From Candidatus Latescibacterota bacterium (GTDB lineage: Bacteria > Latescibacterota > UBA2968 > GCA-2709665): a DNA stretch of 64,000 nucleotides. This document shows positions 23,876 to 30,099 of the stretch, piece by piece. The stretch is from contig CAXXXF010000004.1 of NCBI GenBank assembly GCA_963667175.2, positions 160,001 through 224,000 on the forward strand. Reading direction: 5' to 3'. The translations under genes were made by a program, and so were the position numbers. The notes under the pieces were generated by a model. That model saw nothing but the letters and a program-made list of their open reading frames with translations, searched no databases and was not told where the DNA came from. Position 1 is the stretch's first letter, and the number at the start of each line of letters is the position of its first letter.

Positions 23876-24868
23876 ATGGATCTCACCTTTCGGCCCCGGC
23901 GGTTGAGGCGTACGGAACCCATTCGGACGCTCGTTCGGGAAACCGTATTGAACGTCGGGGACCTGATCTATCCCATGTTCGTAACGGAAGGCGCCAATGT
24001 GCGCGAACCCATTGACTCGATGCCCGGTCAGTTCCGGTTTTCGGTCGACGAACTCGTCCGGGAGTGCGAGAAGGTGTCCGGTCTAGGGATCTGCGGCGTG
24101 AACCTGTTCGGTTATTCGGAGGAGAAGGACGAGCGCGCCTCAATGGCGTACGATCCGGACGGCCTGATCCAGCGCGCGGTCCGGGCGCTGAAGGCGGCGC
24201 TTCCCGACCTGTGCGTGCAGACCGACGTGGCGCTGGATCCCTATACCACGCACGGACATGACGGCGTGCTGATCGACGGCGAGATCGCCAACGACGAGAG
24301 CGTCGGGGTGTTGTGCCAAATGGCGCTGTCTCACGCCGAGGCTGGCGTGGACTGGGTCACGCCGTCGGATATGATGGACGGCCGTGTCGGCGCCATCCGG
24401 GTGGCGCTGGACGACCACGGATTCACCAACGTCGGCATCATGGCCTATTCCGCCAAGTATGCATCCTGCTTCTACGGCCCGTTCCGTGGCGCGCTCAAGT
24501 CCGCGCCGGTGAAGGCGCGCGGTGTGCCGATGGACAAGAAAACCTACCAGATGGACCCCGCCAATATTCGGGAAGCGATGAAGGAGATCGCGCTGGATAT
24601 CGAGGAAGGGGCTGACGTGGTGATGGTGAAACCCGCCCTCCCTTACCTCGACGTCATCGCAAGGGCGAAGGACACCTTCGACGCGCCGATTGCGGCGTAC
24701 AACGTGTCCGGCGAATACGGGATGGTCCTGGCGGCCGCGGAGCGCGGATGGGTGGATAAGGAGCGGGCGATGGTGGAGACCCTGACGTCCATCAAACGGG
24801 CGGGCGCGGAACTGATCCTGACCTACTTTGCCGTCGATATGGCGCAGTTGTTGAGGGAAGAAACGTAG
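23876..24868 (+). CDS. hemB: Porphobilinogen synthase (ALA dehydratase), Asp-rich non-zinc type
   Basis: RPRRLR, DVALDPYTTHGHDG, PSDMMDGR, FYGPFR, YQMDP, MVKP, AYNVSGEY. Confidence 0.97.
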   Translation: MDLTFRPRRLRRTEPIRTLVRETVLNVGDLIYPMFVTEGANVREPIDSMPGQFRFSVDELVRECEKVSGLGICGVNLFGYSEEKDERASMAYDPDGLIQRAVRALKAALPDLCVQTDVALDPYTTHGHDGVLIDGEIANDESVGVLCQMALSHAEAGVDWVTPSDMMDGRVGAIRVALDDHGFTNVGIMAYSAKYASCFYGPFRGALKSAPVKARGVPMDKKTYQMDPANIREAMKEIALDIEEGADVVMVKPALPYLDVIARAKDTFDAPIAAYNVSGEYGMVLAAAERGWVDKERAMVETLTSIKRAGAELILTYFAVDMAQLLREET

Positions 24869-24989
24869 CGGCATTATCGGATGCAGCGCGTCCGATAACA
24901 GTCCGAAGAAGTAGAATTCGCTTGACAGGGCATCCGAAATTCGATATCGTTGACCGGTCATTCACTGTTCGGTTTGAAAGGAAAAGGCG

Positions 24990-25067
24990 ATGGCGGCGCG
25001 CGGTATCCATAGCGGATGCTGGTGGCGGCACGACTTCAATCGTGCCGGCCGGCTGACTGCGTGCTGA
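24990..25067 (+). CDS. Trp leader peptide MAARGIHSGCWWRHDFNRAGRLTAC (not in the ORF track)
   Basis: AAAGGAAAAGG before ATG 24990. Tandem TGG TGG at 25020-25025 (WWR). Lies directly upstream of a terminator and trpS. Confidence 0.85.
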   Translation: MAARGIHSGCWWRHDFNRAGRLTAC

Positions 25068-25096
25068 ACTTGAGATTCGAATTGAATCAATCAACG

Positions 25097-25129
25097 TCCC
25101 TGCCGGTCCACGGCGGGGATTTTTGTTTT
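25097..25129 (+). terminator. Attenuator terminator before trpS
   Basis: TCCCTGCCG-GTCCA-CGGCGGGGA followed by TTTTTGTTTT. Confidence 0.85.
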
Positions 25130-25142
25130 GGAGGAAAACGCG

Positions 25143-26219
25143 ATGGACAATCGGAAACGGATTCTGACGGGAGACCGTCCCACGGGGCGGATGCACCTGG
25201 GGCATTACGTGGGCTCATTGAAGAACCGGGTCCGGCTGCAGGACGAATACGAGTGTTTTTTCCTTGTGGCTGACCTGCACATGCTCACGACCCGGCCGCA
25301 GAAGGAACACATCCATGCCCTTCGTGAAAACGTGCGCGAGATGCTGCTGGACTATCTGGCGGTGGGAATCGATCCGTCCAGGTCGACCATTTATCTGCAG
25401 TCGGCCATCCACGCCGTCTACGAGATGGATCTCTTTTTCGAGATGCTGGTGACCCTGCCGAGAGTCGCCCGGCTGCCCAGCATCAAGGATATGGCGCGCG
25501 CTGCCAGGCTGGACGACGAGGCGATTCCGTTCGGGCTTGTCGGATACCCGATCCTTCAGGCCGCGGACATATTGACCCCCAGGGCGCACCTGGTTCCCGT
25601 GGGAAAGGACAACCTGGCGCACGTGGAGGTGACCCGGGAAATCGCCCGGCGGTTCAACAGCTATTACGGAGACGTCTTCCCGATTCCGGACGCGCTGATC
25701 GGCGAGGTCCCCGTTCTCGTGGGTACGGACGGCCAGGCGAAAATGAGCAAGAGCCTGGACAATGCGATCTTTCTCTCCGACGACGCGCAGACCGTAAAGA
25801 AGAAGGTGCGCGGGATGTTTACCGATCCCAACCGCGTGCGTGCGGATATTCCCGGAAGGGTGGAAGGGAATCCGGTCTTCATTTACCACGACGCGTTCAA
25901 CCCGGATCGGGATGAGGTGGAGGACCTGAAGACGAGGTACCGCGCCGGGATGGTTGGCGACGTGGAGGTGAAGGAAAAGCTGACCCGGGCGCTGAACGGT
26001 TTTCTGGACCCGATCCGTGAGCGCCGGGCACGTTACGAAGCGGATTCCGGGTACGTGGAAAAAGTGTTGTACGAGGGCACGCGGCGCGTCCAGGTCGTGG
26101 CCGATGAAACGCTGAAGGCAATGAAAAAGGCGATGGGGCTCACGGGCGTCTGGAACCGGATATCCCGGAAAGCCCGGGATCGGATGCGCAGGGACGAACA
26201 GAGGGACTCGGGATCGTGA
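25143..26219 (+). CDS. trpS: Tryptophanyl-tRNA synthetase
   Basis: [13 protein letters not shown] (HIGH), [22 protein letters not shown], complete anticodon-binding domain. Confidence 0.97.
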
Positions 26220-26227
26220 GAATATCC

Positions 26228-26476
26228 ATGGCACAACGTTCGGGCATTTTGTCCGGGAACGCGTCGATTCCCCTTCACCGCTGGTGGCTCGGGGCAACAG
26301 GAGCCGTGCGTCCGCCTCCGGATGATCTGTGCCTGAAGGACTGGCGATGGCCGCGGTTCACCTGGAGGTGGATCGCGGCTTTTTTTGTACAGCAATCTGA
26401 ATCTCCAAACGCGGCGCCCGGGCGCCGGCCCGTTTTCCGACAAGATACACTTGAAAATAAGGAGTTCTCAAAATGA
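26228..26476 (+). promoter_or_regulatory. Second Trp-rich leader ORF (82 aa, 6 Trp) spanning an intrinsic terminator
   Basis: HRWWL at 26282-26287, then WRW twice. Its stop overlaps the start of the next gene (ATGA). Confidence 0.65.
26350..26386 (+). terminator. Terminator/attenuator hairpin before the TrpRS paralogue
   Basis: GCCGCGGTTCACC-TGGA-GGTGGATCGCGGC followed by T7. Confidence 0.88.
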
Positions 26477-27282
26477 AACGTCCGATTGTTCTGGCCGGTA
26501 TCCGGCCAACGGAAAAAATGAACCTGGGACACTTGATCGGGTTCCTGAAACAGATGCTTGACCGGAAGGTGGAAGCCAGGCGCTTTTTCATGATCGCCGA
26601 CTACCATGCGTTAGTTCTGGATCGGAAACATCCGCGTGAAATCGAGCGTAGTGTTCGTCATCTTGTCATGGATCTTCTGGCGACGGGTTTCGATCCTGAG
26701 CGAAGTGTCTGTTTTCTGCAGTCGCAGGTTCCGCAACTCGCGGAGTTGGCGATGATTCTTGAACTTTCGATACGGCTGCCGACCCCCGCGAGCTTCCCGG
26801 AGGCGAAACGGAAGCCGACCCTGGGTTTTCCGGTCTTCCAACCGGCGGACGTGCTGCTGTTCCGGCCCGATTTCGTGACTGCGGGACCCGGCCAGCGGAT
26901 GCGCTCGAATCTGTGCCGGGAAACAGCGCGTCGATTCAATCGCAAATTCGGGACGGTCTTTCCGCTGCCCGGGTTCGAGCAAAGCGCACAGGCGAATGGA
27001 ACCCGCGGAATTACCGGAATACGCGTGGGTCACTCAAATGCGGTTGGGATTGCGGATGCCGACGGGAATGTTCGGACGAGGACGAATGGAGAGGCGCGGG
27101 CGACGCGGAAGGACGCCGAACACGAGGCGTTTCGGATCGCGGAGACACAGCTGGAGGACAGACGAAGCCTGGTCGGCGACGTCCTGCGTCTGGGGGGATC
27201 GGAGGCAAGGATCGAGGGCCAGCGGACGCTGGAGGAGGTGAAGAAAGCCGTGGGGCTGCGGTATGGAAGTCTATTGGGATAG
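26473..27282 (+). CDS. Degenerate, shortened TrpRS paralogue (269 aa)
   Basis: AGIRPTEKMNLGH, IADYHAL, GFDPERS, QSQVP, FPVFQPADVLL and RETARRFN..FG.VFPLP are TrpRS-like. KMSKS is absent and most of the anticodon domain is missing. AAGGAG RBS and an open frame. Confidence 0.85.
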   Translation: MKRPIVLAGIRPTEKMNLGHLIGFLKQMLDRKVEARRFFMIADYHALVLDRKHPREIERSVRHLVMDLLATGFDPERSVCFLQSQVPQLAELAMILELSIRLPTPASFPEAKRKPTLGFPVFQPADVLLFRPDFVTAGPGQRMRSNLCRETARRFNRKFGTVFPLPGFEQSAQANGTRGITGIRVGHSNAVGIADADGNVRTRTNGEARATRKDAEHEAFRIAETQLEDRRSLVGDVLRLGGSEARIEGQRTLEEVKKAVGLRYGSLLG

Positions 27283-27292
27283 CGACGGGGTC

Positions 27293-28210
27293 TCACCGAC
27301 CGACTCGCTCGCGGTTGGCGGCCTCGAACAGGCCGGCGGCGAGCGCTTCCAGGCGCCCGCGCCATGCCAGTTTCTCGAGCCATCCGGCGGGAGCGCCCGA
27401 CATGCCCCACAGCGCGCCGGCGAGCTGTCCGGTGACGGCGGCCACCGTGTCGGCGTCATCGGCGAGATTGGCGGCCAGAATAAGAGCCTGCTCAATCGAC
27501 TCCGACCTGTCCACGCACCACAGCGCCGCCTCAAGCGTGTGCACGACGTATCCCGACGAGGAAATGGCCTCGCGCTCCCTGCCGCGCCACGACCCCGCGG
27601 CCACCCCGGCGATCCGGGCGTCGCCGCTCCACTCTCTGGCTCGCAGGACGGTTTTCTTCGACGCGCCGGCGATCGCCTCGCTCAGCAGTTCGGCATAGAA
27701 CGCGCAGGCCTCCACCGCCTGCGCGGCGCCGTGCGTGGCGCGGCTCTGCAAGCGGGCGGCCTCAGTCGCCCCCGCCCCGTCGTGCCACCATCGGATCGCC
27801 ACCGGCGAGAGCCGCATGAGCGAACCGTTTCCGGCGTTGCGCGGATCGGCGCTGCCGCTCAACGGCGCCCCGGTTTCGCTGAATGCCCGGAGCGCCCGCT
27901 CCGTGGTCGTTCCGACGTCGAAACACGTGCCGGTGACCGAGTTGTGTCCTTCCTTATACCACCGGAGGAACCGATTCATCAGGTCGCGCACGTCGAGCCG
28001 GCCTCGCTCAAGCAGCGATTCCGCGAGACAGAGGGCCATGCTCGTGTCGTCAGTCCACTCACCCGGGTCCAGGCCGAACGGGCCCCCGCCCACCAGATCG
28101 GTAACCGGCGGCCTTGTGTCCCTACCGGCAAACTCCAGCGTCGTGCCGAGCGCGTCGCCGAGCGCCAGCACAACCAGCGCCCCTTTCGCGCGATCCAACG
28201 CCGCCGTCAT
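27293..28210 (-). CDS. ADP-ribosylglycohydrolase (DraG/ARH family)
   Basis: GDALG, WTDDTSMAL, AGNGSLMR, ATHG, DADTVAAVTGQLAGA. Confidence 0.93.
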   Translation of the reverse strand: MTAALDRAKGALVVLALGDALGTTLEFAGRDTRPPVTDLVGGGPFGLDPGEWTDDTSMALCLAESLLERGRLDVRDLMNRFLRWYKEGHNSVTGTCFDVGTTTERALRAFSETGAPLSGSADPRNAGNGSLMRLSPVAIRWWHDGAGATEAARLQSRATHGAAQAVEACAFYAELLSEAIAGASKKTVLRAREWSGDARIAGVAAGSWRGREREAISSSGYVVHTLEAALWCVDRSESIEQALILAANLADDADTVAAVTGQLAGALWGMSGAPAGWLEKLAWRGRLEALAAGLFEAANRERVGR

Positions 28211-28485
28211 GTCGCGAACGGACGCCCCACCGTCACACCACTTTCGCGAATTGTTGCCTGATGGCCGGTTTCCAGGCATATTCCCAATAAGGGCAGAAAG
28301 CCCGTAACACCTCGGTCTGGCATTTTTCTTGACACTTCAATAATTAGATCCTAAGGCGGCTTCGCTATGCTCAGCCGCAACCAAAGAGGGTGGTCGTGAA
28401 GAGGCAGGTTGTTTTGTGGTATGCAAAACGGCGTTCGTCCTTTATGATGGTGGTCCCGACCGCCATCAATCCAAGGAGGAACGCC

Positions 28486-30099
28486 GTGAAAGACTTCGTG
28501 GACCAATATAATAAAAAAATCAGTGGCGTGGTATCGTGTTTTGATCGGGTTCTGTTCAAAGGGCACCTGCCGCTGGGATTTGGCAATGCGATGGAGCGGT
28601 TCATGGGTAATCAGGGATTTTTGTTGAAGGACTTCAAGCGTTTTGTGACGACGCATTCCAAAACGATCCATGCGCACGCGGAGGCGGTGGCGAGCAGGTA
28701 CGAGCGCCCGTTCCTCTATCTCGACCGCAACACCGTCAGGAAAGAGGAGGAAGCGCGACGCATCGCCCAACAAGATGGGATCACCCGCGGCCTGGTCTGT
28801 GTGTTCCGCGCCGTGGAGGGCTGTCAGAGTTTCAAGCTGGTTCCAGGGAAAGGAAGGCCTCGCCTGCGCAACGCCCGGCGGAAGTGCCTGTGCTACTACT
28901 TCTACTATATCGACCGTGACTTCGGGTTGCTGCATATCCGCATCCAGCCTGCCTGCGCCGGATGCTCGGCAGGCAGGTCCTGGTTCCCTCTGGTGGTGCA
29001 GGTCTGTCTCAATGGCCACGAATACCTGGCGCGCAAGCTCGATAAAAACGGCATTGCGTATGAAAAAGCAGACAACGCGTTTCTATGGATCGACGACGTG
29101 GCCCGGGCGCAACGGTTTGCCGATCGTTTTGTCGAGAAAAATTGGCCGCGCATTCTCTCGGGTCTTGCCCGCAGGGTCAACCCCCTGCTCAAAGACCTGC
29201 TTTCGGAGATGGACTATTACTGGGTCGTTGACCAGGCTGAGTTCGCCACCGACGTGATGTTCACAAGCCCCCGTGCCCTGAAGGTGCTGTATGAAAATCT
29301 GCTCAGACATACGGTGCTGTGCTTCTCTCCCCAGGACATCCTGACCTTCCTGGGCCTGCCTGCCGAGCATAGCCCGGCCTGTCTGCCGACAAGGCAGGCG
29401 CAGGCAGGACGCAAACTCCACGGCAACTTTCAGGGCGAAGTCCTCACGGACTTCAAAAACAAACGCCACCCCGGCGCACGGGTCAAACATCGGATGTGTG
29501 AGAACTGGATGAAAATGTACGACAAACACGGGCGCGTACTACGCATAGAGACAGTGATCAACCATCCAAGGCAGTTCAAGGTCCGCCGCCAGGGCATACG
29601 GCAAGGACAACGCGTGATGGGCTGGTATCCCATGGCCAAAGGCGTGGCCAACCTCTACCGCTATCGGGAAATCTCATTGAAGGCCAACCAACACTATCTT
29701 CAGGCGCTGGCAGCAGCACCGGACACCGAGAAGAGCCGTCACAGCCTCACCGCACTTTCCCGACCGCGCAGGCACAAGGGGCGTACCTATCGGGGCTTCA
29801 ATCCCGCCGACACCCACGACCTCGACCTCTTCACCGCCGTCTTGAGAGGCGAACACGCCCTGATGGGCTTCCGCAACCAGGACATCCGAAAACACCTCTT
29901 CAAGCAACCCAGATCCCTCGACCAGCGCCGACGGCAGGCCAACGCCGTCAGCCGACTCCTCAAACGCCTACACGTCCGAGGCCTGATTGCTAAAATCCCT
30001 CGCTCCAGAAGATGGCGCGTCACACAGGCCGGACACGTCACCCTCGCGACTTCACTGACACTATACCACAAGCACACAAACGCTATCCAAGCAGCATGA
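28486..30099 (+). CDS. Putative transposase/replication-initiator-like protein with C-terminal winged helix
   Basis: GGAGG RBS and GTG 28486. Motifs SGVVSCFDRVLFKG, YYFY, LNGHEYL, KMYDK..VLRIETVIN and a wHTH (RLLKRLHVRGLIAKIPRSRRWRVT). Confidence 0.75.
   Translation: MKDFVDQYNKKISGVVSCFDRVLFKGHLPLGFGNAMERFMGNQGFLLKDFKRFVTTHSKTIHAHAEAVASRYERPFLYLDRNTVRKEEEARRIAQQDGITRGLVCVFRAVEGCQSFKLVPGKGRPRLRNARRKCLCYYFYYIDRDFGLLHIRIQPACAGCSAGRSWFPLVVQVCLNGHEYLARKLDKNGIAYEKADNAFLWIDDVARAQRFADRFVEKNWPRILSGLARRVNPLLKDLLSEMDYYWVVDQAEFATDVMFTSPRALKVLYENLLRHTVLCFSPQDILTFLGLPAEHSPACLPTRQAQAGRKLHGNFQGEVLTDFKNKRHPGARVKHRMCENWMKMYDKHGRVLRIETVINHPRQFKVRRQGIRQGQRVMGWYPMAKGVANLYRYREISLKANQHYLQALAAAPDTEKSRHSLTALSRPRRHKGRTYRGFNPADTHDLDLFTAVLRGEHALMGFRNQDIRKHLFKQPRSLDQRRRQANAVSRLLKRLHVRGLIAKIPRSRRWRVTQAGHVTLATSLTLYHKHTNAIQAA
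28948..28977. repeat. 30-bp in-frame palindromic insertion (adds PACAGCSAGR)
   Basis: CCTGCCTGC-GCCGGATGCTCG-GCAGGCAGG between codons IRIQ and SWFP. Confidence 0.88.
29355..29408. repeat. 54-bp in-frame nested palindromic insertion (33 bp plus inner 21 bp at 29378-29398)
   Basis: CCTGCCTGCCGAGCATAGCCCGG[CCTGTCTGCCGACAAGGCAGG]CGCAGGCAGG. Removing it restores FLGRKLHG. Confidence 0.88.

Follow-up and report, generated by a model that had tools for sequence, protein, structure and literature searches.

What is a tryptophanyl-tRNA synthetase (TrpRS) core kept for once it can no longer plausibly charge tRNA? The question is raised by a locus of Candidatus Latescibacterota bacterium (assembly GCA_963667175.2, contig CAXXXF010000004.1), from which a stretch of 64,000 nucleotides was analyzed, positions 160,001 to 224,000 of the forward strand; this whole stretch is called the window below. 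Within it, 253 nt downstream of an intact housekeeping trpS, lies an open frame for a diverged and shortened TrpRS-like protein, here called the paralogue. The initial annotation, made from the sequence alone, took it for a non-catalytic heterodimer partner of TrpS or a Trp-sensing protein and not for a decaying copy. Our analysis leads us to favor, on balance, the view that the paralogue is a real, maintained pseudo-synthetase that would act by binding, through the dimer surface it retains from TrpRS.

Decayed and retained parts of the paralogue

The paralogue resembles TrpRS both in sequence and in predicted fold. BLASTP against the neighboring trpS product gives 30% identity (81/268, E 4e-36), and a Pfam search at E up to 0.01 returned a single family, PF00579 (tRNA-synt_1b; 75.2 bits against a gathering threshold of 21.1, E 7e-21). 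The alignment pairs residues 3-165 with profile positions 5-181 of 292, so that the second half of the profile is missing, and ∼55-60 residues are absent from the C-terminal helical domain with its anticodon-reading loop. The product of trpS matches the same profile over positions 5-291 of 292 (262.1 bits) and has HIGH, KMSKS, and the full C-terminal domain intact. With TIGR00233, the NCBIfam equivalog for EC 6.1.1.2, trpS scores 311.8 bits and the full-length relative P0008 278.4 bits, while the paralogue, at 120.3 bits, falls below the cutoff of 176.75. An AlphaFold2 model from a 65-row alignment (mean predicted local distance difference test, pLDDT, 73.9) consists of a Rossmann core, a disordered stretch at residues 174-212 (pLDDT below 50), and two confident C-terminal helices (207-227 and 231-260, pLDDT 90-97). 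All top Foldseek matches of this model are TrpRS (probability 1.00, template modeling score 0.67-0.77, with 0.73 to 2G36), and 2G36 is the best match in the PDB by sequence (E 5.8e-28) as well as by fold. The predicted loss of most of the anticodon-binding helices is thus borne out, as is the open 269-aa frame with a strong ribosome binding site (Table 1), for which GGAG and the ATG are kept in all six orthologous leaders.

To place what was lost, we used the E. coli enzyme, for which the available text of PMC12135181 assigns residues 1-85, 140-183, and 299-334 to the aminoacylation domain, residues 86-139 to connective peptide 1 (CP1), which forms the dimer interface and part of the Trp pocket, and residues 184-298 to the C-terminal domain that holds the anticodon-reading loop (Arg222-Ser227). 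In the same enzyme, Glu155 and Gln152 read the discriminator base G73, and Tyr100, Arg106, Glu119, and Ile121 touch the acceptor stem (PMC12135181). The replacements listed in the initial annotation, HIGH by NLGH, the GxDQ segment by GPGQ, and KMSKS by IRVGHS, are all present as described, and so is the indole-binding Asp in ADVLL. The counterpart of HIGH is an invariant HLGH in 19 main TrpS and five full-length second copies, and it reads NLGH, ILRH, NLGH, ILGH, HRGH, and HQRD in the six orthologues, four of which also have Glu for the preceding Gly. NLGH by itself is no proof of lost ATP binding; the free drift among orthologues is the stronger evidence. Four of the six orthologues have GPGQ...SNL and the other two xPDQ...VEQ, and the Glu that reads G73, mapped by motif alignment and not by structure, is Asn in four of six (RSNLCRE in the window copy). 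Both Lys residues of KMSKS are gone from IRVGHS (residues 183-188, 27019-27036). The CP1 loop has been shortened independently in G000, G017, G018/G021, and G038. Given the decay of HIGH, GxDQ, KMSKS, the G73-reading Glu, and the CP1 loop, the paralogue cannot plausibly, as judged from its sequence, activate Trp or charge tRNA.

The retained parts are as informative as the missing ones. The C-terminal helix noted in the initial annotation is present and conserved, but it is part of the aminoacylation domain and no remnant of the anticodon domain, and the losses are therefore clean domain excisions. The dimer-interface region likewise stands in part: the first CP1 helix is conserved, with the pattern QSQVPQL.EL..I. 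kept in all second-copy forms and different in the main TrpS, but the window copy has lost ∼10 CP1 residues. In the window's family, then, the anticodon-binding domain is lost, and the Rossmann core, CP1, and the final helix are kept.

Table 1. Features of the trpS-paralogue locus, in window coordinates
Feature	Coordinates	Strand	Remarks
Housekeeping trpS	25143..26219	+	358 aa from ATG 25143; mechanical open reading frame 25128..26219 opens at TTG 25128
Structured non-coding element	26275..26388	+	∼110 nt between trpS and paralogue; ends in terminator-like hairpin and T-run
Shine-Dalgarno AAGGAG	26459..26464	+	8 nt 5' of paralogue ATG
TrpRS-derived pseudo-synthetase coding sequence	26473..27282	+	ATG start, 269 aa; aminoacylation-domain core, CP1, and C-terminal helix, without functional C-terminal anticodon-binding domain
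Degenerate HIGH (NLGH, residues 17-20)	26521..26532	+	Gly of the preceding P-x-G is Glu14
First CP1 helix QSQVPQLAELAMILELS (residues 83-99)	26719..26769	+	best-conserved block; core of predicted dimer interface
Shrunken CP1 loop (residues 104-118)	26782..26826	+	∼10-residue deletion unique to window copy; pLDDT below 50 at 113-117
Asp126, indole-binding Asp of specificity helix (PADVLL)	26848..26850	+	kept in 5/6 orthologues
GPGQ (residues 138-141, Asp of GxDQ lost), then RMRSN	26884..26910	+	Asn146 replaces G73-reading Glu
KMSKS-loop remnant and start of C-terminal domain (residues 171-215)	26983..27117	+	degenerate, predicted disordered
C-terminal helical hairpin (residues 216-269)	27118..27279	+	most constrained part; corresponds to aminoacylation-domain helix 299-334 of E. 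coli TrpRS

Lineage, distribution, and selection

A word-indexed search fetched 113 relatives of the paralogue. Close orthologues of 276-308 aa are 68-77% identical to it; other relatives include forms of 282-288 aa (46-47% identical) and short forms of 234-248 aa, and a clade of full-length 332-aa proteins, which retain HLGH, GPDQ, and KMGKS, is 37-41% identical over the entire query. The close relative that is identical to the protein of genome G003 is named at NCBI as a hypothetical protein of a Gemmatimonadota bacterium. Among solved structures, this lineage comes closest to those of D. radiodurans TrpRS II and of the Fe-S TrpRS from T. maritima; for the full-length P0008 the best PDB match is the former (2A4M, E 4e-89), and 2G36 matches at E 1e-80. 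According to the available text of PMC2954223, the [4Fe-4S] TrpRS of T. maritima has the motif C-x(21-24)-C-x6-C-x2-C, and in organisms with multiple TrpRSs only one copy has it. The spacing C-x20 or x24-C-x6-C-x2-C occurs in the anticodon-binding region of 22 of the 113 relatives (among P0008-P0035, P0041, P0048, P0094); it is absent from the paralogue (P0001), in which this region is deleted. Housekeeping TrpS proteins of the same genomes have no cysteines of this kind. Only seven proteins in a library of 1.84 billion representatives reach E 1e-30 to the paralogue, and the degenerate family is accordingly narrow. A locus search with the paralogue alone yielded 10 distant TrpRS loci in candidate-phyla genomes (L042-L051), none of them a member of the family, and these were not used.

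A TrpRS tree (quick maximum likelihood, 47 rows) was supported by the Shimodaira-Hasegawa-like approximate likelihood ratio test (SH-aLRT) only, and long branches leave the placement of G038 and P0040 unsure. It separates a main-TrpS clade (19 rows) from a second-copy clade (23 rows), each with 100% SH-aLRT, and the paralogue falls in the latter. Its CP1 helix and C-terminal helix carry the signatures of the 332-aa clade and not those of trpS. The paralogue therefore descends from an old second TrpRS lineage, and the assumption that it is a copy of the adjacent trpS did not hold; a tandem duplication is ruled out by the tree and by the lineage-specific motifs. The short forms of the window's family make up one group with long branches, in which the order of genera is g4, g5, g1. 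Because the paralogue tree follows this order, the truncation is at least as old as the common ancestor of the family.

Presence of the paralogue was scored in 41 genomes of the order, the source genome included. In genus g1, that of the window, six of 15 genomes carry it (G000, G003, G007, G009, G010, G012), and within the same family, f1, it is also found next to trpS in G017 (g4) and in G018 and G021 (g5). In all nine f1 carriers it lies ∼650 bp downstream of trpS on the same strand. The check for homologues in conserved synteny proposed with the initial annotation thus came out in its favor, as 6/15 genomes of the genus have orthologues and so do two other genera within the family. The paralogue was not found in the four genomes of g2 and g3 of this family. 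In G016, a g3 genome, the sole TrpRS found at the locus (L041) is a 344-aa enzyme, only 33% identical to the window TrpS. It falls among ordinary bacterial TrpRS and not in the main-TrpS clade of the family, which suggests that the housekeeping enzyme has been replaced in g3. In the sister family, f2, a second copy far from trpS is present throughout genus g6 (16 genomes) and in the single g7 genome, and G038 (g9) has a degenerate form of 222 aa. In G030, G027, G036, G017, and G018 the second copy has a convergent GNAT acetyltransferase gene beside it, a neighbor that ties the second-copy loci together by position; in the source genome the GNAT homologue lies ∼49 kb from the paralogue. An intact second trpS in relatives had been named as a sign of recent decay. 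The sister family does have intact 332-aa members beside the same GNAT, but the truncation is old and recurrent, not recent.

Genomes of g1 without the paralogue have the gene order hemB-trpS-ADP-ribosylglycohydrolase. When searched by tblastn, neither a set of five loci (E up to 10; one locus from another genus) nor a set of eight (E up to 1e-3; three from other genera) gave a second TrpRS-like match, and the two sets jointly cover all nine non-carriers. In a trpS nucleotide tree, a single-gene tree with several weak nodes, the carriers are scattered; G004 is omitted from this tree, and G015, G019, and G020 are likewise missing from its rows. This pattern is most simply read as presence in the ancestor with several independent losses by deletion in g1. 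As a protein so often lost from genomes, the paralogue is a dispensable accessory.

Where it is present, selection acts on it. The ratio of nonsynonymous to synonymous substitution rates (dN/dS), computed by NG86 for the 15 pairs of the six orthologues, is 0.28-0.46 (dS 0.23-1.3). Codon bootstraps of four pairs gave intervals of ∼0.22-0.61, with none of 1000 replicates at or above 1 in any pair, so the value near 1 expected of a decaying copy was not observed. A parsimony count on the terminal branch of the window copy gives a ratio of nonsynonymous to synonymous changes per site (pN/pS) of ∼0.40 for the paralogue and 0.06 for trpS. The C-terminal 54 residues are the most constrained (dN/dS 0.07-0.29), and the N-terminal core lies at 0.22-0.47. 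The indels among the six orthologues all have lengths divisible by 3; they include the ∼10-residue deletion in the window copy, the loss of 3 residues in G009, and the gain of 29 residues in G007. No stops or frameshifts occur in the six orthologues or in the short forms of three other genera. Purifying selection on the paralogue is thus moderate, and it bears most on the C-terminal helix and the first CP1 helix. Together with the degenerate motifs and the syntenic orthologues, these values uphold the initial view of a non-catalytic protein that is not a recently decaying copy.

Recurrent excision of the anticodon domain in relatives

Loss of the anticodon domain is not confined to the window's family. 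The second copy of genus g6 (loci L010-L026) is full length (330-332 aa) in seven genomes and short in nine, with three different in-frame junctions. A 248-aa type is present in seven genomes, in one of which a contig end cuts it, and the six complete copies share an identical DNA junction; the 245-aa forms of G022 and G034 have two further junctions, neither of which can be derived from the other. On a tree that includes the forms of g4, g5, g9, and g1, at least three changes to the short state fall on well-supported branches. The deletions remove the C-terminal domain along with KMSKS, and the last helix is always kept, as it is part of the aminoacylation domain.

The short forms of g6 are not under relaxed selection and evolve as slowly as the full-length copies (dN/dS ∼0.11-0.19). 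Pairs of 248-aa forms have a dN/dS of 0.111 (15 pairs) compared with 0.098 for 332-aa pairs of the same clade (10 pairs), with the caveat that the 248-aa copies are not monophyletic and some of their divergence may therefore predate the deletion. The two 245-aa forms compared with their full-length sister give 0.17-0.19, much as a full-length pair does (0.187). Monophyly of the six complete 248-aa copies was rejected by an approximately unbiased test on the flanking codons (p 0.0087), although these copies share one junction. Recombination or spread of the allele is the likelier explanation, and recurrence a less likely one; the pattern suggests that the deletion allele has spread by recombination.

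These domain-less forms have kept much of the activation site. HLGH is found in four of the five aligned 245/248-aa forms (HLEH in G023) and xDQ in all five (GPDQ in four, GQDQ in G034), and the Trp pocket is kept. The 248-aa P0019 scores 195.6 bits with TIGR00233, above the cutoff, from which it follows that such forms would be annotated automatically as tryptophan-tRNA ligase, and the truncated P0039 (236 aa) is named tryptophanyl-tRNA synthetase in its source.

Dimer model, rival explanations, and known systems

How might a core of this kind act? TrpRS is an obligate dimer that binds tRNA across its subunits (PMC12135181, available text), and apo E. coli TrpRS exchanges between monomer and dimer (PMC10201369, available text). 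The paralogue may bind via the retained dimer surface, either to itself or to TrpS. A model of the TrpS-paralogue complex reached an interaction prediction score from aligned errors (ipSAE) of 0.78, against 0.00 for the best of three controls; 58 of 80 solved complexes attained this mark, as did 2 of 110 mismatched pairs. Contact agreement over three runs is at least 90%, and the pLDDT of the partner is 66. The modeled interface comprises CP1 residues 87-99 and the C-terminus (231-239 and 260-269), with the lowest-error contacts at 87-98. The heterodimer put forward initially gains from this score, but as TrpRS homodimers have already been solved, the model speaks for likeness and not for binding, and the interface residues are no more conserved than the rest. 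Given this cross-subunit binding of tRNA, neither orientation of a mixed dimer would allow charging. It is on this footing a tentative possibility that the paralogue is a negative modulator of TrpS, acting through an inactive mixed dimer. A speculative and rather unlikely extension is that the TrpRS cores of this order without a C-terminal domain form a functional class of "anti-synthetase" subunits, which swap into the TrpS dimer via the CP1 and C-terminal surface and put a brake on the supply of Trp-tRNA; if this were true, the recurrent in-frame loss of the anticodon domain would be adaptive and not decay.

A number of observations weigh against a maintained binding protein. Some of them concern the surface itself. 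Invariant residues make up 19/52 of the interface and 75/173 elsewhere in the ordered protein (Fisher p 0.43), and with no enrichment, conservation does not single out the heterodimer surface; the conserved blocks are mostly fold-core motifs, among which no functional site stands out. The CP1 helix resembles its own lineage and not TrpS, which favors a homodimer and weakens the heterodimer, and a homodimer of the paralogue is at least as likely as the mixed one. The window copy alone lacks ∼10 residues (∼30 nt) immediately before LGFPVFQPADVLL; contigs of relatives in public sequencing runs have 94 letters where the window has 64, and there is no near-identical run by which an assembly effect could be excluded. 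The tandem placement is weak evidence, as it may reflect a single ancestral arrangement and not function.

Expression raises further doubts. Between trpS and the paralogue lies a structured element (Table 1) with a hairpin at 26349-26380 (14-pair stem, 9 GC pairs, T7 tail), and the paralogue consequently needs read-through or a promoter of its own. Its predicted fold is a long stem, in which GCUGGUGG pairs with CCNCCGG, around an inner hairpin; three of the 43 predicted pairs show a compensatory change. The element is near-invariant in all six carriers, though synonymous sites differ by 0.3-1, and it survives in G011 and G013, both without the paralogue. It is either the 3' untranslated region (UTR) of trpS with its terminator or a leader of the paralogue. 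A T-box or other known RNA leader was rejected, as the one match of an Rfam search of 24700-27500 at E up to 1 was unrelated, below threshold, and located within trpS. The element could also be a small RNA derived from the 3' UTR or an attenuator. Public sequencing runs matched the window only through its relatives: 20 runs are listed, none with half of the query words, and one is RNA. One DNA contig from an ∼89% identical relative spans the entire locus. The RNA-library contig (659 nt), from the same sample, covers only 26824-27400 of such a relative, the 3' half of the paralogue. Its listed differences are nearly all common to the DNA contig, and it is therefore perhaps DNA carry-over; it may also be antisense read-through from a convergent gene, and is no demonstration of transcription.

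Most of the remaining doubts feed the explanation that we consider the strongest competitor, if an unlikely one: the paralogue is a slowly decaying relic without a function of its own, constrained only against a misfolded or toxic product, with deletion as its usual endpoint. It is missing from nine of the 15 g1 genomes, as would be expected of something dispensable, and the gap left between trpS and the ADP-ribosylglycohydrolase gene has at least three lengths (three genomes have 60 bp, G013 has 132 bp, and G011 has 248 bp). The paralogue is constrained several-fold less than trpS, for which dN/dS in the same genomes is 0.05-0.09 by NG86 and 0.015-0.057 by YN00. Residues 171-215 range from 0.2 to 2.4, on few codons, so that this middle region looks neutral; along with it, the catalytic motifs and the CP1 loop drift freely. 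The GC content at third codon positions is 0.667, below the 0.79-0.82 of hemB, trpS, and the ADP-ribosylglycohydrolase gene, and the private deletion of the window copy and the want of a conserved functional patch fit a relic as well. Against a relic stand bootstraps that never reach 1 across dS values above 1 between two orthologue groups, continued constraint on the window's own terminal branch and on the C-terminal helix, reading frames free of stops and frameshifts, and a truncated state that dates at least to the common ancestor of the family. We therefore retain the maintained pseudo-synthetase as the favored reading.

Binding of Trp or a Trp analogue, as a sensor or as a decoy that sequesters a TrpRS-directed inhibitor without catalysis, appears improbable. 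The specificity helix keeps Gln123 in all six orthologues and Asp126 in five; Met129 and Asp132 of B. stearothermophilus TrpRS read the indole nitrogen (bioRxiv 10.64898/2026.03.23.713518, available text), and second TrpRS copies that confer indolmycin resistance are known (PMC9437257, available text). However, G007 has Ala and the G021 short form has Tyr in place of the indole Asp, and further pocket positions are variable: H, H, D, Q, L, and L stand at the equivalent of His43, and F, Y, S, Y, D, and Y at the Tyr that precedes the helix. The private 10-residue deletion disturbs the part of the pocket shared with CP1, and the neighbors, hemB, trpS, and the ADP-ribosylglycohydrolase gene, offer no evident biosynthetic or resistance context. 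The Trp-sensing role suggested at first is consequently weak.

Less probable again is an RNA-binding role, in which a basic core would sit on tRNA-Trp's acceptor arm or on the upstream structured element. The paralogue is strongly basic (isoelectric point, pI, 10.3, net charge +12), the Arg equivalent to E. coli Arg158, which contacts the phosphate of A1 (PMC12135181, available text), is kept in the ...CRE... motif, and a conserved structured element lies directly upstream. The charge is a trait common only to the three closest orthologues (pI 9.5-10.2), however; the remaining two have a pI of 7.8 and the short forms of other genera 5.7-8.3. The paralogue has lost the anticodon domain and the Glu for G73, its CP1 loop at the acceptor has shrunk, and the upstream element is kept in G011 without the paralogue.

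A still-catalytic truncated synthetase that transfers Trp to a non-tRNA acceptor, in the manner of GluQRS/YadB or an amino-acid:carrier-protein ligase, is highly improbable here: a core without an anticodon domain does match GluQRS and EpmA (PMC9437257, available text), but HIGH drifts in the window's clade, the Asp of GxDQ is Gly in four of six orthologues, both Lys of KMSKS are gone from a loop predicted to be disordered, and the TIGR00233 score is below the cutoff. The idea fits the 245/248-aa forms of the sister genus better, where HLGH, xDQ, and the Trp pocket are kept. A cyclodipeptide synthase was also considered and rejected, as PF00579 was the only Pfam family found at E up to 0.01.

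The maintained pseudo-synthetase can be compared with other synthetase paralogues that have changed function. HisZ is a HisRS-like bacterial paralogue that has lost catalysis and serves as regulatory subunit of ATP phosphoribosyltransferase, with HisG as its partner and ligand sensing kept. The paralogue shares with proteins of the HisZ and SLIMP kind its descent from an aminoacyl-tRNA synthetase (aaRS) with loss of catalysis and its retention under purifying selection; unlike HisZ, which has a defined partner, it suggests none beyond TrpS, and its ligand pocket is not conserved. The trypanosomatid TyrRS is a class Ic pseudo-dimer with one catalytically dead half, which still binds the anticodon, and as a pair it remains active. 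There the halves are fused ("two fused TyrRSs" in the available text of PMC9437257); here the chains are separate, the dead one has no anticodon domain, and the mixed dimer would be inactive. For the heterodimer, the closest analogue is SLIMP, an aaRS paralogue kept by selection without aminoacylation that forms a heterodimer with canonical SerRS (PMC9437257, available text). SLIMP is a class II, eukaryotic, mitochondrial protein that keeps tRNA binding, whereas the paralogue has lost its tRNA-binding parts and its heterodimer is only modeled. GluQRS/YadB and EpmA/PoxA are likewise catalytic cores without an anticodon-binding domain (PMC9437257, available text), but they are enzymes with an intact activation site, and HIGH, GxDQ, and KMSKS of the paralogue are degenerate.

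Among TrpRS proteins themselves, D. radiodurans TrpRS II (2A4M, 1YI8) and the T. maritima [4Fe-4S] TrpRS (2G36) are full length and active, while the paralogue is without the Cys4 region, KMSKS, and the anticodon domain. A nitric-oxide synthase partner, as for D. radiodurans TrpRS II, was looked for and rejected: PF02898 matched in none of the 41 genomes and did match in the controls, B. subtilis and D. radiodurans. The engineered TrpRS catalytic-domain and Urzyme constructs of the Carter laboratory (a bacterial TrpRS urzyme is mentioned in the available text of PMC12135181) are cores without an anticodon domain, of which the 245/248-aa forms of the sister genus are natural analogues; the constructs keep the ATP signatures, whereas the natural forms are without KMSKS, and in the window's clade HIGH has decayed too. 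The available text of a 2022 review (PMC9437257) counts TrpRS II and the indolmycin-resistant TrpRS1 among the duplicates and names no TrpRS-like protein whose function is other than aminoacylation, and full-text literature searches found no description of a truncated bacterial TrpRS-like protein.

Some surroundings of the locus may be added. The source genome has three PF00579 genes, namely trpS, the paralogue, and one on contig 15, and 53 tRNAs, of which one is tRNA-Trp(CCA). The trpS start at ATG 25143 agrees with the N-terminus of its orthologues. For a 569-aa open reading frame two genes downstream of the paralogue (28390-30099, +), no Pfam family was matched at E up to 0.01.

Synthetase paralogues that are catalytically dead and have taken on new roles are known from the His, Ser, Lys, and Glu systems, among others. 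The recurrent, selected loss of the anticodon domain in the relatives of the paralogue is the most interesting part of the finding. It also exposes an annotation pitfall, since truncated forms pass the trpS cutoff (P0019) or carry the name of a synthetase (P0039). The order offers a natural series that runs from a full-length, Fe-S-type second TrpRS over cores without the anticodon domain that keep ATP signatures to fully degenerate cores, with selection measurable at each step. This series makes it testable what a class Ic core is kept for once it is unable to charge tRNA, how natural cores compare with engineered catalytic-domain and Urzyme constructs, and whether synthetases that are obligate dimers can be regulated by dead subunits.

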